Virus record (IMG/VR): IMGVR_UViG_3300026196_000005 | Strand: one strand, 5' to 3' | Length of the DNA: 64,000 bases | DNA from: a virus | Shown here: positions 6,316 through 58,061 of the stretch, piece after piece | Layout: each line of letters opens with the position of its first letter | Numbering within the stretch: position 1 is the stretch's first letter | Made by a program: the position numbers and the translations under genes | Notes under the pieces: model-generated | What the model saw: the letters and a program-made list of their open reading frames with translations, nothing else | Told to the model about the DNA's origin: nothing | Databases searched by the model: none

Positions 6316-6408
6316 TTACAAATAGCCCTGCTTAATTTATAATCAGATAGACATATAAACATAAATATTTTTAGCCCTTAACTCGTCAGGCGAGTTGAGG
6401 GCTTTTTT
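6316..6408 (+). promoter_or_regulatory. sigma70-like promoter (TTACAA-N16-TATAAT) followed by leader hairpin H1 with CGTCAGGCG apex and a T-run
   Basis: TTACAA 6316-6321, TATAAT 6338-6343. 12-bp stem GCCCTTAACTCG/CGAGTTGAGGGC (6374-6402), loop TCAGG, then TTTTTT. GGAGG RBS and ATG follow. Confidence 0.6.
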
Positions 6409-6423
6409 GTTTTGGAGGCAATA

Positions 6424-7938
6424 ATGGGAATTGACCGCGTAATAAGCAAAAGTAGCGATATTCGCGTATGGTTTATTGAAAATCGTGCGAATCCGGCAAA
6501 CAATGCAACGTATCAGGGATTAATGAAGTTTAATGACCCAAGTCAATCCTTAGGCGATGTAACAAAAATTGAGATACCAGATCCTAATCAAGCGGGACGT
6601 TTTATCGAAATTGACGAAATGCAGGGTAGTGAAGAGCGGGTATCATTTGGCATTATGGGACGTTACCCACGTGCCCAATCAGATATGAAACGTCTTGCAG
6701 AAAAACGATGCCAGCTTGACATTCAAGCGCATCTTGGTCGCTGTCGTGACCCGCAAGATTATAACGGTGGTTGGGAAAAAGTTATCTTTTTTGAAGCTAC
6801 CCGACTGACAAATTACTCAATTGAAAACTTTGGTGCAATTGAATCTGGTGAAGATAATCCAACAAACGAATCTGCTGATACCAATGCCGCACGATGGTAT
6901 GAGCGAGTACGTTTGAATTTTGCCGAACGTGCTACAAGCGACACATTTAACGAAGTGGTCGCTGTTCGTGTTTGTGATAGCAACGAGTGCGGTGATTGCG
7001 ATTCCCCCTCCGATGGTTGCCAACGTGTTTTCTCTGTTCAATTGGCGGCTGGCAATTCCCCCGGTGTATCCCCATCTGTAATTTATAGCGATGATGGCCT
7101 TCAAACAAATGGCCTGACTTTTATTGATACCTTGACAAGTTCTCAGGAACCATCTGACGCAGCTTGCATTGGCGATAATTTAGTAGTCATTTCAAATGAT
7201 GCTGGTTCTCTGAATTATGCCAATACGGGTGACATTTTACTGGGTACTGAAACTTGGGTTGAAGTTGCTACTGGTTTTGCCGTTGGTGGTGAACCGAATG
7301 CCATTTGGTCAATTTCTGCACGAGATACCTGGATCGTCGGAGATGGTGGCTATATTTACTACACGAATGACCCAACGGCGGGAGTATCTGCGCAAGATGA
7401 GGGCGTAGCAACTGCCCAAAATCTAGCAGATGTGCATGCTTATGATTCTCAAAATGTGGTCGCTGTAGGTGCATCAAATGCAGTGGTCTATACGAATGAC
7501 GGCGGCGGAACATGGGCAAGTGTAACTGGGCCTGCTGTCGGTGTAAATCTTACGGCGGTTTGGATGAAAGATGTAGACACATGGCTAGTTGGTGATGCTA
7601 ATGGCGCATTATGGTACACGAATAATGCCGGAACTACTTGGACGCAGCGTAATCTACCAATTTCTACTGATGAAATTGACGATATTGTTTTCCCGACTGA
7701 TTCAGTAGGTTATTTGGCCGCTCGTTTATCTGCTCCCGCTGGACGCATTTTAGCCACAATTGACGGTGGTAAAAGCTGGTACGTCATGCCAGAAGGCAGC
7801 GGCGCAATTCCCGACAACGATTACATTAATAGCATTGGTATCTGTTCAAAATCTTCACCCAGTATCGCGGCTAATACAATTTATGCTGGCGGTCTAGGTG
7901 CTGATGGTTCAGATGGCATTTTGCTGAAATTGAGCTAA
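6424..7938 (+). CDS. putative major tail (tube) protein with C-terminal BNR/Asp-box beta-propeller-like domain
   Basis: Sits immediately upstream of the chaperone pair and tape measure. GGAGG RBS 5 nt before ATG 6424 (the ORF track starts at TTG 6412). Asp-box-like repeats YTNDGGGTW, YTNNAGTTW, IDGGKSW. Confidence 0.5.
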   Translation: MGIDRVISKSSDIRVWFIENRANPANNATYQGLMKFNDPSQSLGDVTKIEIPDPNQAGRFIEIDEMQGSEERVSFGIMGRYPRAQSDMKRLAEKRCQLDIQAHLGRCRDPQDYNGGWEKVIFFEATRLTNYSIENFGAIESGEDNPTNESADTNAARWYERVRLNFAERATSDTFNEVVAVRVCDSNECGDCDSPSDGCQRVFSVQLAAGNSPGVSPSVIYSDDGLQTNGLTFIDTLTSSQEPSDAACIGDNLVVISNDAGSLNYANTGDILLGTETWVEVATGFAVGGEPNAIWSISARDTWIVGDGGYIYYTNDPTAGVSAQDEGVATAQNLADVHAYDSQNVVAVGASNAVVYTNDGGGTWASVTGPAVGVNLTAVWMKDVDTWLVGDANGALWYTNNAGTTWTQRNLPISTDEIDDIVFPTDSVGYLAARLSAPAGRILATIDGGKSWYVMPEGSGAIPDNDYINSIGICSKSSPSIAANTIYAGGLGADGSDGILLKLS

Positions 7939-7940
7939 CT

Positions 7941-8495
7941 ATGGAAAAACAATACGAAATTAGTAATCCTGTAGCGGCGGCTGTTGAAGTTGACCAAATA
8001 CAGGCAAGTAAAAATGGTGTAAGTCCTGACACTTTTACCACATCATACGGGGTTAAGTTACGTCTTAAGGCGGTTAACCGTCAATCGCTCGGCTCCATTT
8101 CTGACAAATATCTGCGTGAAAAACCCAAGCCGCCGATTGTGATGATTGAAAGTAAAGGGCGCAAAGAACCAAATCACGATGATCCTGATTTTCAAGACGC
8201 GCTTACTTCGTGGAATCTATCCATGTCAATGGCAATTAGTAACTTTATTTTGCTGCGTGGTACTGAATTAGTATCGGTTCCAGATGGCATGATGACATAT
8301 GATTCTGATGAGTGGCGTTTTGAGATGGAATTAATGAGCAACCTATCTGACAATCCGCGTGCCTGCTATCTTGAATGGTTGCGTGGCGTGGCGTGTACAG
8401 AAAAGGATTCTACAAAACTTTTCCAAATCATTGGCCGTAAATCCAATATTGCACAGGAGGACGTGGAAAGCGCGGCGGCGCAATTTCGGAGTTAA
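7941..8495 (+). CDS. tail assembly chaperone (gpG-like)
   Basis: 184-aa ORF directly upstream of the tape measure, with an overlapping downstream ORF in another frame (canonical G/GT arrangement). Confidence 0.5.
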   Translation: MEKQYEISNPVAAAVEVDQIQASKNGVSPDTFTTSYGVKLRLKAVNRQSLGSISDKYLREKPKPPIVMIESKGRKEPNHDDPDFQDALTSWNLSMSMAISNFILLRGTELVSVPDGMMTYDSDEWRFEMELMSNLSDNPRACYLEWLRGVACTEKDSTKLFQIIGRKSNIAQEDVESAAAQFRS

Positions 8496-8757
8496 GTGGA
8501 ATGGTTCTGATGTTTTGGCGGTTCCATTAAGGAATCGCCTAAACGCATCTATTCATTTTGGGCTAACCATACCGGGTTTTGTACCAGAATTCGAGGAGTG
8601 GGAAGCTGGGACAGCCGCTGGACTTAATATGTGGCAGTGGGAAAGCAATGAGTATCCGACTGAATTCAAAGCGCGGGTAATAGCATGGCATAGATTGCAC
8701 AACAGCATAGAGGCTCATAAAACGGATGTCAGCATACCAAAGCCTAAAAAGAAATGA
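8359..8757 (+). CDS. downstream frame of a putative G/GT frameshift product (gpT-like extension)
   Basis: +1 frame relative to 7941..8495, with a 137-nt overlap. Candidate shift site CAA UUU CGG at 8481-8489. No good independent RBS. Confidence 0.4.
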   Translation: MPAILNGCVAWRVQKRILQNFSKSLAVNPILHRRTWKARRRNFGVKWNGSDVLAVPLRNRLNASIHFGLTIPGFVPEFEEWEAGTAAGLNMWQWESNEYPTEFKARVIAWHRLHNSIEAHKTDVSIPKPKKK

Positions 8758-8760
8758 TAG

Positions 8761-8792
8761 ATACCCTGTATGTTGGCAGGGTATTTTATTTT
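8761..8792 (+). terminator. hairpin built from an inverted pair of the iterated motif, followed by a T-rich run
   Basis: ATACCCTG (8761-8768) pairs with CAGGGTAT (8777-8784), then TTTTATTTT. Confidence 0.5.
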
Positions 8793-8807
8793 AAGGATTT
8801 ATAAAGA

Positions 8808-11800
8808 ATGGCACTAGAGAAAATAGGGGTTGAAGCCACAATTGAGGGGTTGTCATCTTTCCGGCGCGGCATAGGCCAGATGGATGATGATGTTCGTGGT
8901 TTTGGCCGTTCTGCTGATGGTATTGTCCCTGGCTTAAATAGTATGGGTGATTCGCTGTTAAAAATTGGCGGCATTGCGGCGGGTGCGTTGGTGGCTGGAT
9001 TAGCAGCGGCTACGACTGGCATAATTGCTTTTACTGGTAGTGGTATCAAAGCGGCAATCGACATGGAAGATCAAATGGGCAACATTGCCGCTGTAATGAA
9101 TACCACGAAAGATGATATTCAGCCGCTATCTGATTTGATTGTTGATTTAGGTATTGATCCCGGCTTAAAAGTCACAGCCGAAGAAGCTGCGAATGCTATA
9201 GAACTATTGGCGCGTAATGGTTTGACCATGCAGGAAATCTTAGACGGCGCGGCAAGGTCTACCGTTTTGCTGGCAAATGCGACGGGTGCTGAATTTGGCA
9301 ATGCGGCCAATATTGCTACTGATGCAATGGCTATTTTTAATATCGAAGCTAAGGACATGCAAGGGGCAGTTGACGGCATAGTGTCAGTCACGACTAATTC
9401 AAAGTTTACCATTGACGATTACAGCCTAGCTTTGCGGAATGGTGGAGCCGCAGCGGCTATTATGAATGTGTCAATGGAAGATTTTAATGCTGTAATTGCT
9501 ACTAGTGCTGATGAAATGGGCAGCGGTATGAAGGCGGGTACTGGGTTTAGGAATTTCCTAACCAGATTAACGCCTGCTAGTGACAAAGCAGCAGAGGCCA
9601 TGCAGCAATTGGGGCTAGTTACATCTGCTGGTACTAATATGTTTTTTGATGCCAACGGGCAATTGAAAAGCATGGCGGAAGTAAGCGGCATTTTGGAAAA
9701 TGCACTATTTGGCACCTCCACTGCAATGGTTGAAGTGGGCGGTCGAACGGCAGCGCAAAATGAAGAACTTGCTAGATTACAAGGTATTTATAATCGTACG
9801 CTAATCTCAATTCAGGATTATGAAACAGGGGTAAAAGGTGCTGGTTTATCAGATGAGGCCAGAGCTAATAAATTAGAAGATTTGCAATTACAACTTGCCA
9901 ATACGGCGGCGGTTATGGGGCCATTAAACGCCATACAGGGTGATTTAATCGAAACAACTAATACCCTAACTGATGCCGAAAGAAGCGCGTACTTAGAAAC
10001 CATATTCGGGGCAGACGCTTTAGGTACTGCTATTGCTCTTTCCAAAGAAGGGGCAGATGGTTTTGCAGAATTAGCCGCGTCAATGTCGGAAACAAAGTCA
10101 GCAGCGGCGGCATTGGAACGAATGGATTCTGTTGCTGGTGTAATGGAAATTATTAGCAGTGTTATTGACGGTTTGAAACTACAAATTGGACAAGCATTTT
10201 TACCGCTTATTAGAGATTTGGCAGATAATTTTTTGGTCTTTGTTCAGAATGTCGGGCCAAAGGTGGTAAAAGCATTTGAAAATATATCAGGTGGTATTAG
10301 TGAATTTGTTAGTTTATTGCAAGATGGCGAATCGCCACTAGATGCTTTTTTTGGTGGACTGGAAAAAGGCGGCATATCAAAAGATTTTATTAAGCAATTA
10401 AAAGATGCGGTTAAAGCAATAGATGATTTTGTCACGCCAATTATAGAATTTGTAAAAGACCATGCAAAAGAATTTAAGGGCGCATTAGTTGGTATCGGTG
10501 CTGTTTTGGGAGCTGGTATTATCGTATCCGTTCTCACCACAATTGGCGGTTTAATTGCTGCTTTAATTTCACCTATCGGCTTGCTAATTGTTGGATTTGC
10601 TGCACTTGGTGCGGCAATATCTCATTTTGGCGGTATTCAGCAGATTATTGAAAACATTCGCAATTTTATAACTGAAACTGACTTTGCCGCTTTGGGGCAA
10701 GATTTAATCACAAAATTTTTAGAGGGAATGTCTAATTTAGGCGAGTCTTTTGGAACATGGGCTGGCAACCTTTTAGTATCAATTACTGAATCAATAAATA
10801 ACATAGATTGGATAGCAGTAGGTGAAAGTGTCATTACATTTATTGGCAATGCTATAGCTGGGGCGGTTGGCTTAATTGCATTGGCAGTTACGGGATTATT
10901 TAATTTTTTCAAAGGAACCTCTGACTCGCAAGACTGGGCAAGCATTGGATTAGATTTATTAAACTCAATTTTAGATGCTTTATCTGGTTTTGTTGCTGGT
11001 GTATTGCCTGTCTTACAGGGTTGGTATCAATCATTTATCAGTTGGGTTCAGTCGGTTGATTGGCTGGCAATTGGCAATTCAATTGTCACATTTGTTTTGA
11101 ATGGCTTGAATAACTTTATTTCATTCGTTGGGGAAACACTATCGGGCTGGTGGACTTCGTTTACAACATGGGTGGATAGTGTTGACTGGGTGCAAATTGG
11201 CCTAAATATTGTGATGTTTGTCATCGAAGGTTTAGTAAATTTTGTAGCAAATGTAGCCGAAACTCTAGGCACATGGTATCAGGCATTTGCTGACTGGGTA
11301 GAATCAATCGATTGGAAACAGATCGGCTATGATATTGTCACTTTTATTATTGATGCATTTCAATTCTTTAATGAGGAAGTACCAGCAACACTTGATCAGT
11401 GGGCGCAAAATTTCGTTGACTGGGTAACCGAAACCGACTGGAAACAAATGGCAATCAATCTGATTGTCGATATGGTAGTCGGTTTGGGTGAATTCTGGTT
11501 TTATGCACAGCCTAAAATTCAGGCATGGTGGACTTCAATTAAAGACTGGTTTGATAGTATTGACTGGGCAGCATTGGGACAAACTATTATAGATGGTGTA
11601 GTAAGCGCAATTACTAATGGAGCCGCAGCTATTGCAGGTGCCATTGGCGATATGATACAGGGTGCTATTGATGCCGCAAAAGATGCATTAAATTCCCACT
11701 CTCCATCAAAGGTATTTTATGATATTGGCACAAATATCGGTCTAGGTTTGATTGGTGGCATTAATGCTATTGCGCCATCGGTGCAAGAATCAATCGCTGC

Positions 11801-12602
11801 TTTATTTGATATTGGCGGTGCATTGGGTGGAATTGGCGGCGGTTTTGTTAATCAATTGAAAAATGATATTTTGCCAGAATTAGAAGCGGCGGTTGAAAAT
11901 AGGCAATTCAATCTTGATTCATTGATGTCTAGTTTTACCGATAAATTTGGGATAGAAACCGATCCGACGAGTTTGGTCAATGCGTATTTTGCCGCAATTC
12001 ATAGCGGCAATACTGAAATGCAAAAAGATATTGAGTCCATTTGGCGCGTACAGGGTGAATTAAACGGAGCAACAGCGGAATATGAACAAGCACAAGCCAG
12101 CATTGTGGCATTGCAAAAAGCACAAGCCGACCTTGCATTTTTAGAGCAGCAGCAAAAATTACTTGATTTGATTACCGAAAATGGGCTAAATGCAAAGGAT
12201 ATTTTAGGCGGTTTGGAGCTTGGCTTGGGGGCAGATACACAAGGATTAGTCGAGGCCATGACCCGTGCAATTCAGGCAATTATTGAACAGGCGAATGACC
12301 AATTGCAAATTGCCTCACCATCTGGCGTATTCAAACAAATTGGCAAATACATTACAACTGGTTTGGCGGAGGGCATTGATCAAACCTCTACCAGTCCGGC
12401 ACAGGCTATGGAATCAATGATAAATCGCATGGTACAACCTGTGCAAAGTCAGGCGGCTATGCCATCGGTAATCAATCAGCCATCGACTACTACCGTTACC
12501 AAAACAGCACAAGTTGATATGTCTGGTATGCAAGTTGGGAATGAAATGGATTTACAATTCTTGGGTGACTTCATTTTGCAGAAAGTTTCAGAGGCTATCT
12601 AA
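8808..12602 (+). CDS. tail tape measure protein
   Basis: 1264 aa, Ala/Gly/Ile-rich. N-terminal TP901-type core-like region (AAVMNTTKDDIQPLSDLIVDLG...AANAIELLARNGL), TM-like central segments, W-periodic internal repeats, position after the chaperones. Confidence 0.9.
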   Translation: MALEKIGVEATIEGLSSFRRGIGQMDDDVRGFGRSADGIVPGLNSMGDSLLKIGGIAAGALVAGLAAATTGIIAFTGSGIKAAIDMEDQMGNIAAVMNTTKDDIQPLSDLIVDLGIDPGLKVTAEEAANAIELLARNGLTMQEILDGAARSTVLLANATGAEFGNAANIATDAMAIFNIEAKDMQGAVDGIVSVTTNSKFTIDDYSLALRNGGAAAAIMNVSMEDFNAVIATSADEMGSGMKAGTGFRNFLTRLTPASDKAAEAMQQLGLVTSAGTNMFFDANGQLKSMAEVSGILENALFGTSTAMVEVGGRTAAQNEELARLQGIYNRTLISIQDYETGVKGAGLSDEARANKLEDLQLQLANTAAVMGPLNAIQGDLIETTNTLTDAERSAYLETIFGADALGTAIALSKEGADGFAELAASMSETKSAAAALERMDSVAGVMEIISSVIDGLKLQIGQAFLPLIRDLADNFLVFVQNVGPKVVKAFENISGGISEFVSLLQDGESPLDAFFGGLEKGGISKDFIKQLKDAVKAIDDFVTPIIEFVKDHAKEFKGALVGIGAVLGAGIIVSVLTTIGGLIAALISPIGLLIVGFAALGAAISHFGGIQQIIENIRNFITETDFAALGQDLITKFLEGMSNLGESFGTWAGNLLVSITESINNIDWIAVGESVITFIGNAIAGAVGLIALAVTGLFNFFKGTSDSQDWASIGLDLLNSILDALSGFVAGVLPVLQGWYQSFISWVQSVDWLAIGNSIVTFVLNGLNNFISFVGETLSGWWTSFTTWVDSVDWVQIGLNIVMFVIEGLVNFVANVAETLGTWYQAFADWVESIDWKQIGYDIVTFIIDAFQFFNEEVPATLDQWAQNFVDWVTETDWKQMAINLIVDMVVGLGEFWFYAQPKIQAWWTSIKDWFDSIDWAALGQTIIDGVVSAITNGAAAIAGAIGDMIQGAIDAAKDALNSHSPSKVFYDIGTNIGLGLIGGINAIAPSVQESIAALFDIGGALGGIGGGFVNQLKNDILPELEAAVENRQFNLDSLMSSFTDKFGIETDPTSLVNAYFAAIHSGNTEMQKDIESIWRVQGELNGATAEYEQAQASIVALQKAQADLAFLEQQQKLLDLITENGLNAKDILGGLELGLGADTQGLVEAMTRAIQAIIEQANDQLQIASPSGVFKQIGKYITTGLAEGIDQTSTSPAQAMESMINRMVQPVQSQAAMPSVINQPSTTTVTKTAQVDMSGMQVGNEMDLQFLGDFILQKVSEAI
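10800..11620 (+). repeat. degenerate in-frame tandem repeats (~40 aa period) inside the tape measure
   Basis: Six units of the type xDW-x2-(I/L/M)G-x2-I(V/I)-x-F...(W)...(SF/AF)-x-(S/D)W(V/F)-x-S(V/I)DW: IDWIAVGESVITFI, VDWLAIGNSIVTFV, VDWVQIGLNIVMFV, IDWKQIGYDIVTFI, TDWKQMAINLIVDM, IDWAALGQTIIDGV. Confidence 0.6.
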
Positions 12603-20830: not shown

Positions 20831-20834
20831 TCGA

Positions 20835-24592: not shown

Positions 24593-24660
24593 TTTTTAGT
24601 TCAATATGGGGCAATGCGTTTTAGGCGTGTTGCCCTGTATTGTTTTGACAGGAGATAAAA

Positions 24661-48136: not shown

Positions 48137-48700
48137 ATGAAACCAAGTGATTTTGATACACCAAAACATGCTGATTTTGTAGCTAATTACTTTAAGCTCA
48201 ATATGAATGGGACACGGGCTTATAAGGCTACTTATGATGAAAGTATGGGGGATAATTCAGCAGCGGCAAGTGCATCCGCTCTTCTAAGAAATCCTAAGAT
48301 TGCGGCTGCAATCAAATCGACACTTAAGGCTAGAATCTTAAGCACAGAAGAAATACTTGCTAGACTTGCTGAAATGGGACAATCTGCCCATGCTGATTAT
48401 GTAAAAGAAGATGGGACGGTTGACATTAAAAAAATGGTAAATGATGGCAATGCTCATTTGATTAAAGGCATTAAAGAAACGAAGTATGGGCGAGTGTATG
48501 AATTTCATGATGCTAAATCAGCACTTGAATTGCACGGCAAATATTACGCCATGTGGAAGGATAAATTTGAGATTCAACAATCCCCGCTTGAAAGTGAAGT
48601 TTTGCAGTTTCTTAAGAATGGCGACATAACGGCCGAACAGGTGTTGAAAACTTTAGGCGACAATGACAGGACGCGCCAATTGATTGCTAGTATAAAATGA
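48137..48700 (+). CDS. terS: terminase small subunit
   Basis: FVANYFKLNMNGTRAYKATY...AAASASALLRNPKIAAAI is a Terminase_2-like N-terminus; directly upstream of and overlapping TerL. Confidence 0.75.
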   Translation: MKPSDFDTPKHADFVANYFKLNMNGTRAYKATYDESMGDNSAAASASALLRNPKIAAAIKSTLKARILSTEEILARLAEMGQSAHADYVKEDGTVDIKKMVNDGNAHLIKGIKETKYGRVYEFHDAKSALELHGKYYAMWKDKFEIQQSPLESEVLQFLKNGDITAEQVLKTLGDNDRTRQLIASIK

Positions 48701-50208
48701 TTGCTTTAGAAGATTTGTTGTCCCCAGAAGCTAAAGAAGAATTGCAACTTAGGCAACTGCGCGAAATAGTGCGGCAAAACAAACATGCCGAATTGTTAGA
48801 CCCTGTATTGTGGATAGAAAAGAATTTCTACATCCCAGAACTGAAAGGGCCAATTGAGTTCCAGCCTTATCAAAAAGCAGTCTTACGCGAATCCCAACGA
48901 AAAGACAAAGATGGTAAATTTATCTATAGCATTGTGGTTTGGTCTGACATTAAGAAGTCGGCAAAGTCTACAATAGCAGCGGCAATGGCTTTATACATCG
49001 CACATCTGCGCGAGTGGGCAAGCATTAAAATAATCGCTAATGACCTAAAGCAAGCTGATAGTCGGGTAGCTTATTATTTGCGCCGTGCTATCGAACTTAA
49101 TCCCCGCATGGTAGACACCGTAAAGCAGGTACGATACAAAACCACAATACAGGGTAACAACTCAGTAGTTGAGGCCATTCCTGTTGACCCTGGCGGGGAA
49201 GCTGGCGGCAATGATGACTTGCTCGTGTTCTCTGAGATGTGGGCAGCAAAGCATAAAGCGATGGAACAGTTCTGGACAGAAATGACACTTTCACCAACGA
49301 AGTTTGGCTACTCGCAAAGGTGGATTGAAACTTACGCCGGGAATCAGGGCGAGGCTAGAATATTGGAGCAACTCTACATACAGGGTGTAAAAGAGGGCAA
49401 GCCATTAGATTTAAGCTATACCGACAAACAAGGCAAGTATCATGACTTAAGCGATTTAGAAGTTTATGCTAATGGGCCGTTACTTTGCTTGTGGAATACT
49501 AGGCCACGATGCCCCTGGCAAACGTCCGAATATTATGCCAGTGAAGCGGCGGTATTGACACCTAACGAATTTAACCGCGTGCATCGCAATCAGTGGACAA
49601 GCTCAACAGACACATTCGTCCCTCCCGAATGGTGGCATAGTTGCCAAGCCGATTTGCCAACCTTGGACAAGAGTCAAACAATTGTACTGGCCTTAGATGC
49701 TGGTGTAAGCAATGACTCATTTGCCATGTGTGGCGTAAGGAAATGGGGAACGGATGGTGTTGACGTGGTGTACAGCCGTCGATGGTTGCCCCCTAAAGGC
49801 GGTAAAATCAGTTTTACGAATCCAGACAACCCAAACGACAGGGATACGCCTGAGGGAGAGATTAGGCACCTCTGCGAGGCGTATAACGTTGTTATGGTAG
49901 CTTATGACCCTTACCAGCTTGAGGACATGGCTAACAGGCTAGGGCGAGAGGGTGTGGCGTGGTTTTTTGCCTTTAGCCAAGGTAGCCAACGGCTAACGGC
50001 CGATTCTGGTTTACGAATACTTATTCGTGAAAAACGTTTGAGGCATGATGGTAACCCGGTATTGACTGAACACGTCTTAAATGCAGGTGCAAAAATCGAC
50101 AGTGAAGATAGCAAAATCCGCATTGTAAAACGCGCTGCTCATTTGAAAGTCGATCTTTGTGTGGCTTTGTCAATGGCTTCAAATGAAGTACTTCGACTCA
50201 ATTTATGA
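48697..50208 (+). CDS. terL: terminase large subunit
   Basis: 503 aa. Deviant Walker A region SDIKKSAKST, Walker B-like DDLLVFSEMW, C-terminal nuclease-like VMVAYDPYQ. Position after TerS. Confidence 0.85.
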   Translation: MIALEDLLSPEAKEELQLRQLREIVRQNKHAELLDPVLWIEKNFYIPELKGPIEFQPYQKAVLRESQRKDKDGKFIYSIVVWSDIKKSAKSTIAAAMALYIAHLREWASIKIIANDLKQADSRVAYYLRRAIELNPRMVDTVKQVRYKTTIQGNNSVVEAIPVDPGGEAGGNDDLLVFSEMWAAKHKAMEQFWTEMTLSPTKFGYSQRWIETYAGNQGEARILEQLYIQGVKEGKPLDLSYTDKQGKYHDLSDLEVYANGPLLCLWNTRPRCPWQTSEYYASEAAVLTPNEFNRVHRNQWTSSTDTFVPPEWWHSCQADLPTLDKSQTIVLALDAGVSNDSFAMCGVRKWGTDGVDVVYSRRWLPPKGGKISFTNPDNPNDRDTPEGEIRHLCEAYNVVMVAYDPYQLEDMANRLGREGVAWFFAFSQGSQRLTADSGLRILIREKRLRHDGNPVLTEHVLNAGAKIDSEDSKIRIVKRAAHLKVDLCVALSMASNEVLRLNL

Positions 50209-50248
50209 TATAGCAGTGTAAACAATATGGTAATGGCGAGGTGCAAAT

Positions 50249-50629
50249 GTGAGGCTAAAGTGGAATAAAATTGAGATTGTGATAGAGGTCAATGGTAGAA
50301 AAATGCCCCTATATCTATATTCGCCTAGAATCGATGGGGTGACGTGGGGGGATGCGGTTGGGTTGATTCTATTTTGCTCTTTTTTCGCCCTAGTTAGTTT
50401 AGAATTTTATAGTTATGCCGTTGTTATCCATTTGATTGGTTGGGTTATTTATGCCCTGACTATACGCCATTTCATTGAGGAAATTAAGAAAGACGGCGAT
50501 TATAGAAGCCAATGGGAAGATGCCATGTTTTTCATTGGCGATCAGATACTTGTTGAAGTTTTATTGATTGTTATAGCATCTTGCTTGTGGCAGATAATGT
50601 TTATACTACTCTTATTTATTGATGGCTGA
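50249..50629 (+). CDS. membrane protein
   Basis: 126 aa with 3-4 hydrophobic helices; non-ATG start, so the start is uncertain. Confidence 0.35.
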   Translation: MRLKWNKIEIVIEVNGRKMPLYLYSPRIDGVTWGDAVGLILFCSFFALVSLEFYSYAVVIHLIGWVIYALTIRHFIEEIKKDGDYRSQWEDAMFFIGDQILVEVLLIVIASCLWQIMFILLLFIDG

Positions 50630-50732
50630 TGGTGTTGAGCTTTTTATTGTCTACCTAATTCATGACAAACGTCACCTATCAAAACCCTGTATAGTTTGCT
50701 ACAATCAAACAAACTTAACAGGAGGTGCTAAT

Positions 50733-50801
50733 ATGTTCGATTGGATTTTGTACTATCTCGGTTTAATCCCAGATGTAAATGGCAATTACTGGGCAGGCTA
50801 A
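50733..50801 (+). CDS. 22-aa micro-ORF with strong RBS
   Basis: AGGAGG 7 nt before ATG 50733. MFDWILYYLGLIPDVNGNYWAG, followed by a terminator at ~50806-50842. Confidence 0.3.
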   Translation: MFDWILYYLGLIPDVNGNYWAG

Positions 50802-50846
50802 AAATTAAAGGGCTGTTATCCAAATGGGTAACGGTCTTTTTTTTTA

Positions 50847-50990
50847 TTGCATCCCATACCTGGTTTATGCTACAATGACCTTGCAAGGATACTTCTCAAC
50901 ACTCCCCCTTTTAACTCCCCCCTCAACTGGCACGACATACGACTGGCAAGAAAATGATCATCTATCCCCAGATGGTCATTTTCGCGTATA
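50847..50990 (+). ncRNA. promoter (TTGCAT-N18-TACAAT) plus candidate C-rich small RNA
   Basis: The transcript would contain CUCCCCCUUUUAACUCCCCCCUC (anti-SD-like) and a 13-bp hairpin AAAATGATCATCT/AGATGGTCATTTT (~50954-50985). No ORF. Confidence 0.35.
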
Positions 50991-51003
50991 GTACCTTTTG
51001 GTG

Positions 51004-51047
51004 TTGACAGTTTGCATTCTAATAGTTTATAATCTTATCAGTTGAGA
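51004..51047 (+). promoter_or_regulatory. promoter/leader cassette copy 2
   Basis: TTGACA (51004-51009)-N17/18-TATAAT within TAGTTTATAAT (51023-51033), then CAGTTGAGA (51039-51047). Confidence 0.55.
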
Positions 51048-51074
51048 CAATAAACCAGACAAAAGGAACTAGAA

Positions 51075-51227
51075 ATGAAAAAGCAACATATGGGAATCAG
51101 CTACACAGTTTTACAGAATGGCAATGGTCAATACGAAGTTGTTATCGGCAAAGCTTATTACATCGTTGAGGATGCTGAACTGGTTAGCTTAGTTGCTCAA
51201 CAAATTATTGAAAGTGGCGAGTTTTAA
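51075..51227 (+). CDS. hypothetical 50-aa protein (not in the ORF track)
   Basis: AAGGAA RBS; MKKQHMGISYTVLQNGNGQYEVVIGKAYYIVEDAELVSLVAQQIIESGEF. Confidence 0.35.
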   Translation: MKKQHMGISYTVLQNGNGQYEVVIGKAYYIVEDAELVSLVAQQIIESGEF

Positions 51228-51254
51228 TCAAATTAGAAAACAGGAGAAATAACA

Positions 51255-51482
51255 ATGAAAATCATCACGCAGGAACATTTAGCAAGTAATCTGATTAAAA
51301 ATATGCTTGACCAGCTCTATCTAGAATATGAAATGAGCGGTTTGGCATTTGACCACGAAAATGGTAGTAGCTTTGATGAATATGTCTGGAATCGTTTGCA
51401 GGATTTGGGTCAAGCTACATACGAGGCCATCGGCGAAATGTACGGCGACCTAGACAGCGCAATTAATGAGGTGATGGAATGA
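51255..51482 (+). CDS. hypothetical acidic protein
   Basis: 75-aa ORF with AGGAGA RBS. Confidence 0.4.
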   Translation: MKIITQEHLASNLIKNMLDQLYLEYEMSGLAFDHENGSSFDEYVWNRLQDLGQATYEAIGEMYGDLDSAINEVME

Positions 51483-51694
51483 GCAAAGTTTGTAACTGTC
51501 CAGCATACCCGTTCCCGCATCGGCCAAACGGAGGCAAATGTGCGGGAAGTATTCAAAACTACTGGCTGAATCATTGTGATGATTGTGCTAATGGTACATG
51601 CGAGAATGAAGCGCATGAAAACGTAAAGACATATGCCTATTGGCAACGATGGCTTAATGACCCGTCACTGACAGCGGCGGAAAGGAATTTATAA
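51479..51694 (+). CDS. Cys-rich small protein
   Basis: CNCPAYPFPHRPNGGKCAG...HCDDCANGTCENEAHE; start overlaps the previous stop. Confidence 0.35.
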   Translation: MSKVCNCPAYPFPHRPNGGKCAGSIQNYWLNHCDDCANGTCENEAHENVKTYAYWQRWLNDPSLTAAERNL

Positions 51695-51894
51695 TGCCTC
51701 CACAAACAATGAGCGAAAAAAACAAAATCGGAATGCAACGAAAAACAGCCGCTTATGACCTGCTCAAAGAATTGGCGCAAAAGTGCGGCATTATGCAACA
51801 TGGCCGGGATGGTCATGGGTATGATGAAATGATCGGAATGTTGGAAAGTGGGGATTTTGAATTAGAATTTGTGAGTAAAAATGACCCGCATTAA
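51694..51894 (+). CDS. hypothetical protein
   Basis: 66-aa ORF coupled to its neighbours. Confidence 0.35.
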   Translation: MPPQTMSEKNKIGMQRKTAAYDLLKELAQKCGIMQHGRDGHGYDEMIGMLESGDFELEFVSKNDPH

Positions 51895-52231
51895 CTGCAT
51901 TGAACCAAGCCGCTTAACATCCAAGCATTTACTTGCCGAATACCGCGAGATGTTACGTCTGCGCCATGCGCGGCCACGTCAGACGGGTGTAAGTAGCTAT
52001 AGGCTAGGTAAAGGTCATGTTTTGTTCTTTTACGATAAGGGCAGCTACCTACTGCAACGGCATGGGCAACTGCGTGATGAAATGAAACGGCGCGGCATGT
52101 CGCCAAACTTTGAGCTTGACCTTTCCTCATGGCCGCAATGGGCAATGGGAGATTGGATACCCGGTATTGATGCTCAGTTGCAAAACGTGGCAAGAATTAT
52201 TAATAGATTAGCTAATGGGCAGGAGAAATGA
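51881..52231 (+). CDS. denV: pyrimidine-dimer DNA glycosylase (T4 endonuclease V-like)
   Basis: The N-terminus MTRINCIEPSRLTSKHLLAEYREMLRL closely parallels T4 DenV [27 protein letters not shown]; also GHVLFFYDKGSYL. Confidence 0.85.
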   Translation: MTRINCIEPSRLTSKHLLAEYREMLRLRHARPRQTGVSSYRLGKGHVLFFYDKGSYLLQRHGQLRDEMKRRGMSPNFELDLSSWPQWAMGDWIPGIDAQLQNVARIINRLANGQEK

Positions 52232-52605
52232 AAATGTTAGAAAAATTTGAAGATTTGAAAGGGGAAGTTTTAGCAAGTGTTAAGAATAAAGAGAATGGGG
52301 AATTGGTTTTTACGCTTGTTAATGGTGATATTTATAAATTGTATCATGAGCAAGATTGCTGTGAATATGTCTATATTGAAGATATTATCGGAGATTTAGA
52401 CGATTTGGTAAATAGTCCTATTCTAATGGCAGAAGAAATTAGTAATGCAGATGAGCCAGAAAATGCAGAAATTCAATATCGTGATTATAGTGAAACTTGG
52501 ACTTTTTACAAGTTGGCAACTGTAAAAGGGTATGTAACTATCCGTTGGTATGGCAGTTCAAATGGTTATTACTCTGAAAGTGTTGATTGGCGTAAAGTTA
52601 ATTAG
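52228..52605 (+). CDS. hypothetical protein
   Basis: 125-aa ORF, followed by a clear terminator. Confidence 0.4.
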   Translation: MKMLEKFEDLKGEVLASVKNKENGELVFTLVNGDIYKLYHEQDCCEYVYIEDIIGDLDDLVNSPILMAEEISNADEPENAEIQYRDYSETWTFYKLATVKGYVTIRWYGSSNGYYSESVDWRKVN

Positions 52606-52612
52606 TTAAATT

Positions 52613-52640
52613 AGCCCTTCTTTACCGAAGGGCTTTTTTG
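52613..52640 (+). terminator. intrinsic terminator
   Basis: AGCCCTTC TTTACC GAAGGGCT followed by TTTTTT. Confidence 0.8.
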
Positions 52641-52731
52641 TGTTTTACTGTGTTGTTTGTTATAATAATAGAAATTGCTAGTCGCGACGCGGTAACGTCC
52701 ACTAGCCCTCCGATTGAAAAGGAATCGAAGC

Positions 52732-53910
52732 ATGATAAATCATATCACGATTTTAAAAGCCTACAAGACAAAACTTAGACCAACCGCAAAGCAGCGGCGT
52801 TATTTTGGCGGCTGTTGTGGAGCTGCTCGGTATGTTTTTAATTGGGCGTTGGCCGATAGGATCGCCACTTATGAAGCTGGCGGTAAACCAAACAAGTTTG
52901 AGCAAAAGAGGCGTTTTAATGCTACCAAAGATGAGATTTGTCCATGGATTCGTGAATACCCATATTGCATAATGCAAGAAGAGTTTGACCATGTGGACAT
53001 TGCTTATCAAAACTTTTTCCGTCGCATTAAACAGGGTAAAGGCGGCAAAGAAACAGGATTTCCGAAATTCAAAAGCAGATACAAAGACAAGCAATCATTT
53101 GTTTTACGTGGTTCTATTCGTGTTGAAAATGGGCGTGTTAAGTTACCCCGTATTGGTTGGGTAAATTTAGCTGAATCTAATTATATTCCAGAGGATGTAA
53201 AAATAAACTTTGTGACACTTTCGGAAAGTGCCGGGGAATGGTTTATTAGCTTTCAAGTCGAACAAGAAACAGACGAACCCGTACCGGCAATGGGTGAACC
53301 GCTAGGCGTTGACGTTGGCATTAAATCATTGGCGGTTTGCTCAGATGGGAAAGAGTTTCCTAATGACAAGGTGCTGAAAACATACGAGAAAAAGTTAGCC
53401 CGTTTACAGCGCGAATTATCACGACGTGAAAAAGGCAGTTCTAACCGGACCAAAACAAAAGCTAAGATTGCCAAGCTTCACCAAAAGATAGCTAACAAAC
53501 GGGCGCATAACCTGCACAATGTAAGCAAGTATGTAACCGAACATAAACGGCCTTCGGTGGTAGTCATTGAAGATTTGAACGTTAAGGGCATGGTTAAAAA
53601 TCACAATCTGGCTAAAGCCGTTAGTGATGCTTCAATGTCTGAATTGCACCGACAAATTGAATATAAAGCAGCATGGAATGGGATTGAGGTTTTGAAAGCG
53701 GATAGATGGTTTGCATCTTCCAAAACATGCAGCTCCTGTGGCTGTATCAATTCTGAATTGACATTAGCCATGCGGATTTATAAATGCCCTGATTGCGGGG
53801 CAGAAATGGATAGAGACCTTAATGCTGCTATGAATTTAGCGGCTTTAGCTGAACCTGTGAAGCGCGGGGAATTGCCTGTGGAGTTGGGCGGTAGTGAACG
53901 CTCACTGTGA
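52732..53910 (+). CDS. TnpB-like / miniature type V (Cas12-like) RuvC nuclease
   Basis: 392 aa from ATG 52732 (the track starts at TTG 52714). N-terminal KAYKTKLRPTAKQRRYFGGCCGAARYVFNWAL is typical of the OrfB/TnpB family. RuvC-I LGVDVGIKSLAV, RuvC-II VVVIEDLNVKGM, zinc finger CSSCGC...CPDCG, RuvC-III DRDLNAAMNL. No TnpA nearby. Confidence 0.85.
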   Translation: MINHITILKAYKTKLRPTAKQRRYFGGCCGAARYVFNWALADRIATYEAGGKPNKFEQKRRFNATKDEICPWIREYPYCIMQEEFDHVDIAYQNFFRRIKQGKGGKETGFPKFKSRYKDKQSFVLRGSIRVENGRVKLPRIGWVNLAESNYIPEDVKINFVTLSESAGEWFISFQVEQETDEPVPAMGEPLGVDVGIKSLAVCSDGKEFPNDKVLKTYEKKLARLQRELSRREKGSSNRTKTKAKIAKLHQKIANKRAHNLHNVSKYVTEHKRPSVVVIEDLNVKGMVKNHNLAKAVSDASMSELHRQIEYKAAWNGIEVLKADRWFASSKTCSSCGCINSELTLAMRIYKCPDCGAEMDRDLNAAMNLAALAEPVKRGELPVELGGSERSL

Positions 53911-54011
53911 ATCAGGAAGGTGGCATACTTCGGTATTAAGACCACCAGCACATATGGGGTAACTCATATGTACACCCACTTAACAACTGTATATAGGGGT
54001 AATACTCAAGG
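53911..54011 (+). other. structured gene-array spacer region (candidate leader / tracr- or omega-RNA-like scaffold)
   Basis: Hairpin GGTGG..ATAC-TTCG-GTAT..CCACC (53919-53946, UUCG tetraloop). Hairpin ACATATG/CATATGT (53950-53971). AAGACCACC (53938-53946) is complementary to the repeat 3' end GGTGGTTT with one G-U pair. Confidence 0.35.
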
Positions 54012-54225
54012 GTTTATCCTACAGGCGCGTGGGTGGTTTGAAAAGTTGTCACATTTTCCATTTCTCACTCCTCGTTTATCCTACAGGCGCGTGGGTGGTT
54101 TGGAATCATCATGAGCTATTGTAGCACGAAATCACGTTTATCCTACAGGCGCGTGGGTGGTTTGCTACTTCACAAGCGGCTAACTTTCAACGCCAAGTTT
54201 ATCCTACAGGCGCGTGGGTAGTTTG
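54012..54225 (+). CRISPR. mini CRISPR array: 4 x 29-bp repeat GTTTATCCTACAGGCGCGTGGGTGGTTTG, 3 spacers (33, 33, 32 bp)
   Basis: Repeats at 54012-54040, 54074-54102, 54136-54164 and 54197-54225 (last repeat has G>A at 54220). Spacers are unique. The repeat can form CCUAC-AGGCGC-GUGGG. Starts 101 nt after the TnpB-like stop. Confidence 0.85.
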
Positions 54226-54320
54226 TACGATCCAAAACTCTAATTAATATTTACAGGCTCTGTCTTTACGATGGAGCTTTTTTTGTGTTATCATATATTA
54301 ATTATATTGGATTAAATTAA

Positions 54321-54350
54321 TAGCCTACTCCGTCAGGCGGGGTTAGGCTA
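54321..54350 (+). promoter_or_regulatory. leader hairpin H2 with CGTCAGGCG apex upstream of the portal gene
   Basis: TAGCCTACTCCG-TCAGG-CGGGGTTAGGCTA (one bulge); only TTT follows. Confidence 0.5.
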
Positions 54351-54351
54351 T

Positions 54352-56871
54352 TTGCGCTTACTGGTAAAGTTTATGACCAAAAATGGTACGCAAGAAAAAG
54401 CACTCATAGATGATCGGATATTGGATCGTACGGTTCAAAAGATACCAGACCAACAAACAATACCGGGTAGTGATGTTTTTGTTATCAATGTTTCGTCATT
54501 TGCTGATGACTTGCCAGCCTGGGGACGCAATGTCAGATTACGTGATAGGAAGCTGCGGGGGTTTTGGCCTACTGAACCGATTATAGCAAGTGCCATTCAA
54601 ACGATTGTGGCAGCGCGTGCCAATATGTCATGGTCGCTTGACGGGCCTCCTCGCACGGTTGGCATTTTGCAGCGTATGCTACAGTCATCCAACTTGGGCA
54701 AAGGCTGGCTTGACCTAAGAATTAAAGTACTTACTGACCAACTAACACAAGACAATGGCGCATTTGTAGAAGTCATTCGGCAAGAAGACGCGCCAAATAG
54801 CCCGGTATTGAATCTAGCGCATTTGGACGCAGGTAGATGCGTAAGAACTGGCATCCCCGAAACCCCTGTCATTTACTGGGATCGTGATGGCATAGAGCAT
54901 AAATTAGCATGGTATCAGGTATTGACTTTTGAGGATATGCCGTCGCCAATTGAGGAAATGAATAGTTTGCAGGTTTGCTTCTTAAGTCGCGTCTTAAGAG
55001 CAGCCCAAATTATAAAAGACTTTGGAATCTATAAACGGGAAAAAATAGCAGGGCGTAATCCTGGCGAGATACATTTTGTTTCAGGTGTTCAGACTAAACT
55101 AATCAACGACAAATTAGCCGATGACCAAATGAGTGCCGACAATCAAGGCTATAGCCGTTTCATGTTGCCAACGATTATTGGTAGTCTTGACCCTAATTCG
55201 ACTGTTAGCACGGCTTCAATCGACTTGCGTAGTGTTCCTGATGGATTCGACGAGGATACTACATTGCGCTGGTACATTGCCCAAATTGCAATGGCCGCTG
55301 GTGCTGATTATCAGGATTTTGCGCCATTATCATCTGGCAGCTTGGGCAGCGGTCAACAAAGTGACGTGCTAGACCGTAAGTCACGCGGCAAAGGGCGCGA
55401 AACTGATGTCAAGCTATGGGAACATAAACTAAATTTTAATGGCATCATGCCGCAATCGGTGACATTTGCTTTTGATGAAAAAGACATTGAGTCAGATATT
55501 CAAGCTGCTGAATTAGAAGATAAACAGGCAAAAACATTTTCAACTTATTATGATAAGGGTCAAGGCATTTTGTCGTTGCCAGTTATCCATCAAATGATGG
55601 CAGACCAAGGCATCTTAAAGCCTGAGTACATGGCACTTTTGAATACTACAGATGTGACACCCGATATTGTGGCAACGGATGATGAGCAAGCCGCAACTGA
55701 ATCAGAACTAAATGAGGCAAACAATACGCCGTCAACCGATACGGCAGAAATGCAACCGGAACAGATACCAGCGGAAATTAGAGCGAAGGAAAATGAAGAA
55801 TATGGATGCTTAATGTTAATGATGCCTGATCATATTAGACATGCCGCTTCGTTAATTGCTGCTAATTTAGATAGTGATGATTTGTTTCAGCCACCAGAAT
55901 CATGGTCAAGTTCACCAATTGTGACAGATTCCCATGTAACAGTTAAGTATGGATTTTTGGATAGTGTGACACCAAAGCAAATTACTTCACAGATTCAAAA
56001 ACTATTGCCACTTACTATAAAAATTGGCAATTTGGCATTATTCCAGAATGATGATTTTGATGTATTGAAGTTGAATGTTGACGGGGCAGAATTACGGCAA
56101 ATGAATGCAATTGTTAGTCAGTTGCCAAACGAGGATACACATCCAACCTACAATCCACATATGACTATTGCATATCTTAAACCCGGTATGGGTAAGAAAT
56201 ACCTAAAACTTGACAATCCTCTTAATGGTATGCGCGTATCTGGCGAGTTGGTTTATTCTGACAAGGGGGAGAGCCACACCACCATACAGGGTTCCATAAA
56301 AAAAAAGACAACCAAACAAATTGATACAGCGGATTATGAATCAGAATTAGCTGACTTAATGGCGGAAGCTGCCAATGGTACAATTACAGAAGATGAGTTC
56401 AGAATTGAAGCTGAATCATTGGTTGCTGCTGAAATTATTAATACGTATCTTTTGGCAAGCGGCAAAACCATAGCGCAATTGACAGATGAGGATCGGCAAA
56501 TCATATCAGACCAAACAGAAGTGAACCTTGACGCTATACCGGGTTTATATTTATCGGCTGTTGCTTTTGGTGGTGATGAGGATACGCCTACTGATGAACT
56601 GATTGATAATCGTGTAACGCTTTGGGGAGTTGGTTTACTGGCTGTTTACGCGCTTGGGTTTTTACGTGGTGGAGATGATGAAGATCATATTGGTTGGGCT
56701 TTAGGGCCAACCGATCATTGTAACTCTTGCCTAGATAATAGCCAGCGTGTTCTCACCCGTAGTCAATGGCGAGCTTTAGGAACATATCCAAAAAGTCACG
56801 AATTAGATTGCGGCGGCTGGCTGTGCCAATGTAGTTGGGTAGAAACTGATGAACCGCTCACAGGTGTTTAA
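54352..56871 (+). CDS. portal protein fused to a 2H-phosphoesterase (LigT/Acb1-like) domain and an SPP1 gp7/Mu F-like minor head domain
   Basis: 839 aa in the position after the terminase (start may be ATG 54373). Two HxTx motifs, HVTV (aa 528; nt 55933) and HMTI (aa 603; nt 56158). The C-terminal HCNSC...ELDCGGWLCQCSW resembles the gp7-family end motif. Confidence 0.65.
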   Translation: MRLLVKFMTKNGTQEKALIDDRILDRTVQKIPDQQTIPGSDVFVINVSSFADDLPAWGRNVRLRDRKLRGFWPTEPIIASAIQTIVAARANMSWSLDGPPRTVGILQRMLQSSNLGKGWLDLRIKVLTDQLTQDNGAFVEVIRQEDAPNSPVLNLAHLDAGRCVRTGIPETPVIYWDRDGIEHKLAWYQVLTFEDMPSPIEEMNSLQVCFLSRVLRAAQIIKDFGIYKREKIAGRNPGEIHFVSGVQTKLINDKLADDQMSADNQGYSRFMLPTIIGSLDPNSTVSTASIDLRSVPDGFDEDTTLRWYIAQIAMAAGADYQDFAPLSSGSLGSGQQSDVLDRKSRGKGRETDVKLWEHKLNFNGIMPQSVTFAFDEKDIESDIQAAELEDKQAKTFSTYYDKGQGILSLPVIHQMMADQGILKPEYMALLNTTDVTPDIVATDDEQAATESELNEANNTPSTDTAEMQPEQIPAEIRAKENEEYGCLMLMMPDHIRHAASLIAANLDSDDLFQPPESWSSSPIVTDSHVTVKYGFLDSVTPKQITSQIQKLLPLTIKIGNLALFQNDDFDVLKLNVDGAELRQMNAIVSQLPNEDTHPTYNPHMTIAYLKPGMGKKYLKLDNPLNGMRVSGELVYSDKGESHTTIQGSIKKKTTKQIDTADYESELADLMAEAANGTITEDEFRIEAESLVAAEIINTYLLASGKTIAQLTDEDRQIISDQTEVNLDAIPGLYLSAVAFGGDEDTPTDELIDNRVTLWGVGLLAVYALGFLRGGDDEDHIGWALGPTDHCNSCLDNSQRVLTRSQWRALGTYPKSHELDCGGWLCQCSWVETDEPLTGV

Positions 56872-57356
56872 TGGCACAAATAATCCTACGCTCAATTACA
56901 CCAAAAGGTAAAATATTCGACCTAGATAAATTTGATAGGGAGTCTGCCAAAACCCTAAACGATATTATCAAAAAAGCAGAGCGTGAATTTGGCAAAACAG
57001 TAGCCACTTGGAAACGAAAGCCAGACTTTAAGGTTGACAGGGCAACGTCAAGTAAATTGGTAGCTGTCGTTTCGACGATGGATGAGATTTATGGCTATGT
57101 TGTGAGAGGTACTAAGCCGCATGTTATTACGCCTAAACGCGCTCCTGCTTTACGTTTTCAAACTGGCTTTACTTCTAAAACGACACCGCGTAAAATTGGA
57201 TCGAGGCGTGGAGGAAGTTCGGGCAGAATGGTAAGTGCAAAAATAGTACATCATCCCGGTACAACGGCGCGTGAATTTGACATTGTAATAGCAGAGCAAT
57301 TACAACCTGAATTAGTAAAAGAAGTTCGCAAAGCAATCAAAAAGGCATCCTCATAA
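56871..57356 (+). CDS. hypothetical basic protein in the head module
   Basis: 161-aa ORF; start overlaps the portal stop (TAATG). Confidence 0.35.
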   Translation: MAQIILRSITPKGKIFDLDKFDRESAKTLNDIIKKAEREFGKTVATWKRKPDFKVDRATSSKLVAVVSTMDEIYGYVVRGTKPHVITPKRAPALRFQTGFTSKTTPRKIGSRRGGSSGRMVSAKIVHHPGTTAREFDIVIAEQLQPELVKEVRKAIKKASS

Positions 57357-57551
57357 ATGAGCAATACCCAAATAAGCCAAAAAGAATTTGAAGACATTTT
57401 GAAAGCGTGGCGACAATGCCGCAAAGAACATAGCAGCGGACGGCCGTTTTTTATGTTGGTACAATGGGTTCCAGTTGGGGCAAATGGTGGAGGGCGTGTC
57501 GTTTGTCGGGAGGTTAATTCGCCAGTGAGGATAAAAGAAAATGGGCAATAA
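57357..57551 (+). CDS. hypothetical protein
   Basis: 64-aa ORF, followed by a bidirectional hairpin GCCACTC TTGC GAGTGGC (~57553-57575). Confidence 0.3.
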   Translation: MSNTQISQKEFEDILKAWRQCRKEHSSGRPFFMLVQWVPVGANGGGRVVCREVNSPVRIKENGQ

Positions 57552-57581
57552 AAAAGCCACTCTTGCGAGTGGCTAATTGTT

Positions 57582-57785
57582 TTATTGATTTGCTTTCCAG
57601 ATTAAAAACTTTTTAGCTAATTTGGTAGCTTGTCCCATTTCGCCGTACATTGTGCTATTGATTCGTTTTCCTTCAAACTCTGGAGCCCAGAATGTTCTTT
57701 TTGTACCTACTTTCTTAAACTTTACAATTTCAATTGTTCCTACTTCATTTGATACTGTTTTGGATACCGTGATTTTTTCGTACAT
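57582..57785 (-). CDS. hypothetical protein, reverse-oriented moron in the head module
   Basis: 67-aa ORF on the opposite strand with AGGAGA RBS; isolated between + strand structural genes. Confidence 0.4.
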   Translation of the reverse strand: MYEKITVSKTVSNEVGTIEIVKFKKVGTKRTFWAPEFEGKRINSTMYGEMGQATKLAKKFLIWKANQ

Positions 57786-57924
57786 TTTTTATCTCCTGTT
57801 AGTTATCTCTGAATTGCCTTAATATTATCACAGTTTACAAACTATGTCAATAGTCTACGGTACTAATTTTCAAGATTGCTTAGTATTGTTGACGCATAAC
57901 CAGATATTATGTTATTATCGTAAT

Positions 57925-58061
57925 GGCAATCTGACTAGCTACGACAGTGTGAAACGCAGACAAGAGCCTTAAGGCGCGGTGGCAGTAGCGGGATTGCCAG
58001 GACTAATTGAATACCAATTATTTATTGCACCTAATTCGTCAGGCGAATAGGTGCTTTTTTT
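57925..58061 (+). promoter_or_regulatory. structured leader ending in hairpin H3 (CGTCAGGCG apex) plus T7 run, upstream of the protease/scaffold gene
   Basis: TGGCAATC...GATTGCCA long-range helix. GCACCTAATTCG-TCAGG-CGAATAGGTGC (58027-58054), then TTTTTTT. A possible promoter TTGACG lies at ~57890. Confidence 0.55.

Follow-up and report, generated by a model that had tools for sequence, protein, structure and literature searches.

Three RNA hairpins with an identical G-UCAGG-C apex occupy the 5′ untranslated leaders of the tail, portal-position and protease/scaffold–capsid genes in a 64,000-nt stretch of viral DNA (IMG/VR record IMGVR_UViG_3300026196_000005; hereafter the window, whose numbering is used for all coordinates given without a contig name). 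The window derives from a novel, uncultured tailed phage. Ten further copies lie at orthologous gene positions in metagenomic relatives, giving a family of 13 members in which a short, almost invariant loop sits on a covarying stem. As an RNA motif the hairpin is genuine and conserved; it matches no Rfam family, and any mechanism assigned to it is putative. Judged from sequence, we favor a reading, to which we give about an even chance of being right, in which the hairpins are intrinsic terminators that would gate the virion genes, with read-through depending on a factor that recognizes the loop.

H1 (6373–6403, + strand) combines a 13-bp stem and the G-UCAGG-C apex with a following T6GT4 run, and lies 20 nt before the ATG at 6424. 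H2 (54319–54352, + strand) carries the same apex on a stem with one bulged U, is followed by a weak U-tract (UAUUUG) and lies 21 nt before the ATG at 54373. H3 (58027–58054, + strand) has a stem of 11 bp from which one A bulges, again with the same apex, and ends 13 nt before the ATG at 58068; its U-tract, T7GT3 (58055–58066, + strand), leads straight to that start codon with no Shine–Dalgarno sequence (SD). The apex 9-mer CGTCAGGCG occurs exactly three times in the 64 kb, always on the + strand, against 0.12 copies expected from shuffles, none of 100 of which reached three. Folding energies of the + strand are −24.6, −19.8 and −15.2 kcal/mol for H1, H2 and H3 (z-scores −6.4, −3.1 and −4.0), and folding is weaker on the complementary strand, several stem pairs being U·G. 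All three stems span 11–13 bp with a G+C-rich base on the sense strand, as intrinsic terminators do. An initial annotation of this DNA had described an identical 9-nt apex at three sites tens of nucleotides upstream of structural genes, T-runs after H1 and H3, a good promoter ~30 nt before H1 and a protease/scaffold gene after H3. Our analysis bears this out: sequences and coordinates are as described, T6–7GT3–4 directly abuts the stem of H1 and H3 (H2 has only TATTTG), the −10 hexamer ends 30 nt before H1, and the product encoded after H3 matches, in its central domain, the fold of the T4 prohead protease gp21 (Foldseek probability 1.00). The three stems share the pattern CCTNA...TNAGG, which makes common descent probable, so the three window copies are not fully independent evidence.

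Relatives were collected by searching public collections with alignments of two downstream proteins. H1-type hairpins, located before the 504-amino-acid (aa) tail gene, are present in the window and in L047 (1451–1481), where a different stem bears the same apex. H2-type hairpins, before the portal-position gene, are present in the window and in L011 (2385–2413, with a T8 tract), and L002 retains a degenerate counterpart (6664–6682), a 5–6-bp hairpin with UCAGG in its loop. H3-type hairpins precede the protease/scaffold gene in the window, L011, L002, L012 (identical to L013), L007, L046, L028, L037 and L029, and were found down to ~33% protein identity. The window, L047, L011, L002 and L012 are referred to below as the close clade, and L007, L046, L028, L037 and L029 as the distant clade.

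Conservation across this family is concentrated in the loop. Loop and closing pair (G-UCAGG-C) are identical in 11 of the 13 members, the other two differing by a single loop base (UCCGG in L012, UCAAG in L029), which amounts to changes at 2 of 91 positions; the apex is thus retained in the related phages, on which the initial annotation had made its proposal depend. Covariation was computed on a model-fitted alignment of 12 members. Pairing is kept in 89.4% of its stem cells, and both partners have changed in 10 of the 12 stem pairs; the closing G–C pair is invariant and the second pair switches between C–G and G–C. The covariation score was 0.64 versus 0.27 in shuffles (0/500 reached it), and did not exceed 0.21 in a control with slid partners. 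Except for the outermost ones, wobble pairs have their U in the 5′ arm and their G in the 3′ arm, a polarity indicating that the structure is selected in sense-strand RNA and not in duplex DNA. The earlier suggestion that compensatory stem changes mark a selected RNA structure is thereby substantiated, both by the pairs that covary and by U·G pairs confined to the + strand, and the orthologues make the case far more strongly than the three copies alone.

The position of the hairpin relative to its gene is also constrained. A U-tract (5–9 U within 0–2 nt) adjoins the stem in 12 of 13 members, window H2 being the exception. The distance from hairpin to ATG remains at 7–35 nt, that to the upstream gene ranges from 15 to 476 nt, and this combination ties the hairpin to the downstream gene. 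No promoter fits into so short a gap between hairpin and start codon, and the mRNAs of these genes must therefore be transcribed through the hairpin.

Upstream, every hairpin of the close clade lies 19–125 nt downstream of a conserved sigma-70-type promoter, with hexamers conserved at all three sites and diverged spacers and leaders. P_H1 (6315–6343, + strand; TTTACA-17-TATAAT) is a sigma-70-type promoter with a predicted start site near 6350, and its counterpart in L047 (1396–1424) shares hexamers and spacing, with spacer and leader diverged. P_H2 (54265–54294, + strand; TTTACG-18-TGtTATCAT) recurs as TTTACG-18-TGn plus −10 hexamer in the window, L011 and L002. P_H3 (57889–57918, + strand; TTGACG-18-TGtTATTAT) is of the extended −10 type and is conserved in L011, L002 and L012. 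The architecture first proposed for the window (promoter, short leader, terminator-type hairpin, virion gene) therefore holds, with hexamers conserved in relatives. The leaders are AU-rich and hold further −10-like hexamers, none of them conserved between relatives. The leader of H3 (57922–58026, + strand) is ~100 nt long, is predicted to form a long imperfect helix and is common to L011 only, the leaders before the H3-type hairpin in L002 and L012 measuring ~20–35 nt.

Two further observations concern these promoter regions. P_H2 overlaps an ordinary terminator (54255–54279, + strand; loop TTTAC) in such a way that its −35 hexamer sits in the terminator loop, TTTAC(G). The resulting terminator–promoter composite (54255–54294) is conserved in three phages, with equivalents at L011:2214–2252 and L002:6614–6654, and as one 40-nt unit it closes off the accessory genes and starts transcription anew in the direction of the portal-position gene. 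In the H3 leader, a 12-mer resembling the ops element of RfaH (GGCGGTAGCGTG) is found at 57981–57992 (GGCAGTAGCGGG, 10/12 matches) and at L011:6191–6202 (GGCGGTAGCGGG, 11/12 matches), ~35 nt before the hairpin and within a predicted 75-nt leader helix. It does not occur in the other leaders, nor in L002 or L012, and matches across the window are at chance level; we take it as no more than a lead.

The motif is confined to a small clade. A covariance model of the family found no further match in 330 kb from 78 phages sharing the tail gene (≤50% identity), and it detected no additional copies in the three IMG/VR contigs to which relatives belong. A strict pattern scan of the whole IMG/VR collection returned the known relative only; looser scans had unrelated sequences among the matches listed, such as a gut-phage repeat with TCAGGC in its stem. 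No Rfam family reached its gathering threshold in the window, and relaxed Rfam searches returned only generic terminator-containing families far below their thresholds.

Two features of the family point to a mechanism. A terminator-type hairpin that lies past a strong, conserved promoter and immediately ahead of those virion genes that are most highly expressed suggests that read-through is conditional. A trans-acting reader is suggested by a pentaloop that is asymmetric and stays fixed on a stem that changes freely. In the mechanism we favor, the hairpins would stop host RNA polymerase early in infection, so that the virion genes stay off. A trans-acting factor produced earlier, most likely a phage protein, would then recognize the pentaloop on its exit from the polymerase, and would either block completion of the stem or render the polymerase termination-resistant. 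Such a factor could open all three units together, and the terminator would double as its own nut-like (N-utilization) recruitment site. The initial annotation had interpreted the hairpins as an antitermination-controlled late operon of the lambda-Q kind. The architecture it inferred stands; the lambda-Q mechanism is not supported, as it leaves the invariant RNA loop unexplained, and no Q-, N- or NusG-like gene was found among the ~70 open reading frames scanned. The protein encoded at 22881, named there as a candidate binder, is a GerE/sigma-region-4 DNA-binding helix-turn-helix (HTH) product, and nothing links it to the hairpin RNA.

Several observations weigh against this mechanism. Termination, read-through, start sites, regulation and the factor are all features that we infer from the DNA. 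Pfam and PHROGs searches recovered no Q, N or NusG-like antiterminator among ~70 open reading frames (ORFs), ~6.6 kb of the source contig lying outside the window, and an arginine-rich scan gave only out-of-frame artefacts and no N-like peptide. A loop-bound protein would more naturally stabilize a hairpin than prevent its folding. The U-tract of H2 is poor, and what L002 retains at that position is degenerate. No convincing promoter precedes the hairpin in the distant clade, so that promoter gating may be a late addition. Neither of two further terminator-like hairpins, at 8759–8786 and 24602–24642, which end ~20 nt before the start codons of the tape measure gene (8808) and of another gene (24661), has a loop related to UCAGG; global read-through without loop recognition is therefore possible. 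The boxA element (CGCUCUUA-like) is not found in the three leaders, and its window-wide matches are at chance level. As a separate observation, the stems of the 8808 and 24661 hairpins contain a dispersed word, ACCCTGTAT/ATACAGGGT.

A more specific form of the gating mechanism, which we consider possible but doubtful, would make each hairpin a self-gated terminator whose UCAGG pentaloop recruits a dedicated antiterminator, maybe the product of the orphan 64-aa gene p64 (57357–57551, + strand); the three operons would open together, and the weak H2 upstream of p64 would act as a delay timer. The p64 gene lies upstream of every H3-type hairpin. The family comprises mildly basic proteins of 59–64 aa and is present in every contig with an H3-type hairpin, namely L011 (5395–5589), L012 (1404–1589), L002 (9677–9865), L007 (6166–6351), L028 (131–322), L037 (900–1091), L029 (1590–1781) and L046 (2639–2818) besides the window. 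It is missing from hairpin-less relatives, in which the protease/scaffold gene directly follows a 161-aa gene. An AlphaFold2 (AF2) model consists of a helix and a β-hairpin (pLDDT 77). Weighing against a role in gating, p64 has no Pfam or PHROG relative and no fold match in the PDB, and as an orphan it has only 9 representative matches among 1.8 billion proteins. A partnership between p64 and the hairpin is speculative.

The co-occurrence with p64 also admits a simpler account, which we regard as unlikely: the hairpins could be ordinary intrinsic terminators, or attenuators that leak, tracing back to a single ancestral p64-plus-terminator cassette and later copied to two further sites, with no specific factor involved and the loop kept by folding or by chance. 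The joint presence or absence of p64 and the H3-type hairpin would fit such a cassette, as would the CCTNA...TNAGG pattern shared by the window stems and the distance of only 15–31 nt from the p64 stop codon to the hairpin in distant relatives; many terminators precede genes in this phage as well. The window itself tells against the cassette, since its p64 has a separate terminator (57555–57574), and a divergent promoter pair and an antisense ORF lie between p64 and H3. This arrangement indicates that the hairpin belongs to the downstream gene, which it tracks in preference to p64. Loop and closing pair hardly vary, even though most stem pairs have changed on both sides, which also speaks against this account. 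No comparable loop preference was seen among 473 terminator-like hairpins of the relatives, or in the distant phages (330 kb). Between a strong conserved promoter and the capsid genes, moreover, a plain terminator would do nothing but lower expression.

The ORF between p64 and P_H3 merits a separate remark. It encodes 67 aa on the − strand (57582–57785, in the 57582–57850 region), has a near-consensus promoter of its own (TTGACA-17-TAATAT, 57850–57822) back to back with P_H3 and a bidirectional terminator at 57555–57574, and has no family match. Elsewhere in the window, other strong terminators (50809, 52613, 54255, 61240, 63289, 63900 and others) have different loops, and most of them precede gaps of at least 80 nt. 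A hairpin-less sister clade (L004, L006, L019, L020 and L031; for example L006:12562–12597) carries, 3′ of the capsid gene, a conserved terminator peculiar to that clade, with an 8-nt loop, GCTACAAT (GCTAGAAT in L004), on the stem GCCCGAGGCG.

The constancy of the spacing to the start codon raises another explanation, for which we see a similarly small chance, in which the hairpin acts after transcription as an element of the 5′ untranslated region. It would cap the mRNA 5′ end, perhaps after cleavage within the AU-rich flank, and protect it from 5′-end-dependent decay, or it would bind a protein that tunes translation, with the U-tract serving as an S1-type ribosome landing site. The hairpin-to-AUG spacing (7–35 nt) is indeed the most conserved spatial feature, and in H3, L007 and L046 the AUG directly follows the U-tract with no SD. 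The lack of an upstream promoter in the distant clade, the very high expression of the downstream virion genes and the retention of the loop in H2 despite its weak U-tract would also suit such an element. A stabilizer would have no need, however, of the terminator geometry seen here, with a G+C-rich stem base and a U-tract abutting it in 12 of 13 members, and such a hairpin would terminate a bacterial polymerase regardless. Since SD and AUG are never covered and it is the distal loop that is conserved, steric control of the ribosome is unlikely. The same facts leave the translational operator, offered in the initial annotation as its alternative, a weak proposition: the hairpin excludes both SD and AUG, and its conserved loop is the end far from them.

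We consider it highly unlikely that the promoter–hairpin units are in the first place short phage RNA genes (~50, 50 and 135 nt), with the loop as a seed for a host or phage target and read-through into the virion genes secondary. Their strong conserved promoter, AU-rich 5′ tail and terminator hairpin with U-tail do reproduce the layout of a small RNA, and the lambda PR′–tR′ transcript offers a precedent. Against this, the four + strand GCCUGAC sites in the window are all gene-internal with none near a start codon, no loop complement lies within 200 nt of any member, leader sequence and length (19–125 nt) are not conserved among relatives, and the distant clade lacks the promoter.

A role at the DNA level, as a cruciform or as a protein operator centred on GTCAGGC, is scarcely credible. 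An inverted repeat whose middle is fixed might be bound by a protein, and a GerE-type HTH gene is present at 22881. A dimer operator, however, would show the reverse of what is seen here, an asymmetric fixed centre flanked by variable arms; the U·G pairs correspond to C–A mismatches on the other strand, and the T-run lies on one side only.

Other candidates were rejected outright. A cis pseudoknot or kissing partner finds no loop complement within 200 nt of any member, and no window hairpin convincingly presents CCUGA. With 11–13 bp, the stem is too short for an RNase III site. An IS200/IS605 end or repetitive extragenic palindromic (REP)-like element is at odds with the orthologous positions in phages that have no TnpB gene and with the variable stems, and a CsrA site with a loop that is missing the GGA such a site requires.

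The genes downstream of the hairpins belong to the virion modules of the phage. The 504-aa tail-module gene after H1 (6424–7938, + strand) encodes a Ycf48/BNR-like propeller and is followed by overlapping G/GT-like ORFs and then by the tape measure gene (8808–12602); gene order alone suggests that its product is the major tail protein. The 832-aa gene after H2 (54373–56871, + strand) follows the genes for the small and large terminase subunits (terS/terL, 48137–50208) and contains an embedded 2H phosphoesterase domain; that it encodes the portal is suggested solely by its position. The gene after H3 (58068–59732, + strand) encodes a 554-aa prohead protease fused to scaffold-like helices, a reading based on a fold match in the central domain and accompanied by an invariant His/Ser/His set, and the 493-aa capsid-position gene (59735–61216, + strand) lies directly 3′ of it. 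Other recognized genes include a primase-polymerase and D5-type helicase (43844–46293) and a TnpB insertion (52714–53910). In INPHARED, the window has no DNA match and the capsid gene no match, and the portal-position gene matches via its 2H phosphoesterase domain only.

Two observations concern the surroundings of these modules. In the close clade, the interval between the large terminase and the portal-position gene (50249–54114) is an accessory-gene hot spot, holding a pyrimidine-dimer glycosylase, a DUF7448 protein and TnpB in the window; in distant relatives the portal-position gene directly follows the terminase. The promoter–hairpin cassettes are located where such insertions break up the virion gene cluster. 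A 58-kb contig binned as a Methanothrix metagenome-assembled genome (L009, JAUCQD010000187.1) carries the same head and tail module at 33–44% identity without the hairpins, and either belongs to a bacterial phage placed in the wrong bin or gives a hint of the host range of the wider group.

The timing of late genes is understood in only a few model phages, and the hairpins belong to none of the systems they most resemble, lambda PR′–tR′/Q, N/nut boxB, LoaP–dfn and HK022 put. In layout they resemble lambda PR′–tR′, where a strong promoter, a short leader and an intrinsic terminator are likewise read through for the virion genes. Lambda late control, however, consists of one unit as opposed to three separate ones here, and Q, of which no homologue was found in this phage, loads via a DNA element and a sigma-dependent pause, leaving the terminator loop unconstrained. 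The boxB hairpins of the N/nut systems of lambda and P22 offer a parallel in recognition: they too are multi-copy pentaloop hairpins shortly downstream of promoters, with a fixed loop and a covarying stem. The protein that reads the boxB loop confers resistance to termination on the polymerase; a corresponding reader in the present phage is putative. BoxB differs in having a ~5-bp stem and a GNRA-like loop (GAAAA/GACAA) and in not being a terminator, in contrast to UCAGG on a 12-bp stem with a U-tract, and nut sites work with boxA and the N protein, whereas no boxA lies near these hairpins and no arginine-rich N-like protein was found. In the LoaP system, a UNCG-tetraloop hairpin in the dfn leader recruits a NusG paralogue that suppresses the intrinsic terminators of a long operon (PMC12691694). 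There, recruiting hairpin and terminator are separate and the loop is of another type, and the window contains no NusG/KOW match. HK022 put and other cis-acting processive antitermination RNAs also place a promoter-proximal RNA at each read-through operon, but put, with two stems in ~70 nt, needs no protein partner and lacks a U-tract. Operators of the MS2/PP7 type, together with P22 scaffold autoregulation, share a sequence-specific loop before a structural gene; the MS2/PP7-type operators include the SD or AUG, in contrast to the hairpins described here, which end 7–35 nt upstream with a terminator-type U-tract.

In this clade of uncultured phages, a covarying motif absent from Rfam marks where the main virion genes begin, and even if no factor is involved it is useful as an annotation mark for late transcription units. 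A loop-reading antiterminator, should one exist, would tie several operons to a single signal in a new and compact manner, and might supply an orthogonal terminator/antiterminator pair for synthetic biology. The gating mechanism we favor would then resemble lambda Q in its logic and N–boxB or the LoaP hairpin in its recognition, with the stop signal and the recruitment site merged into a single hairpin.

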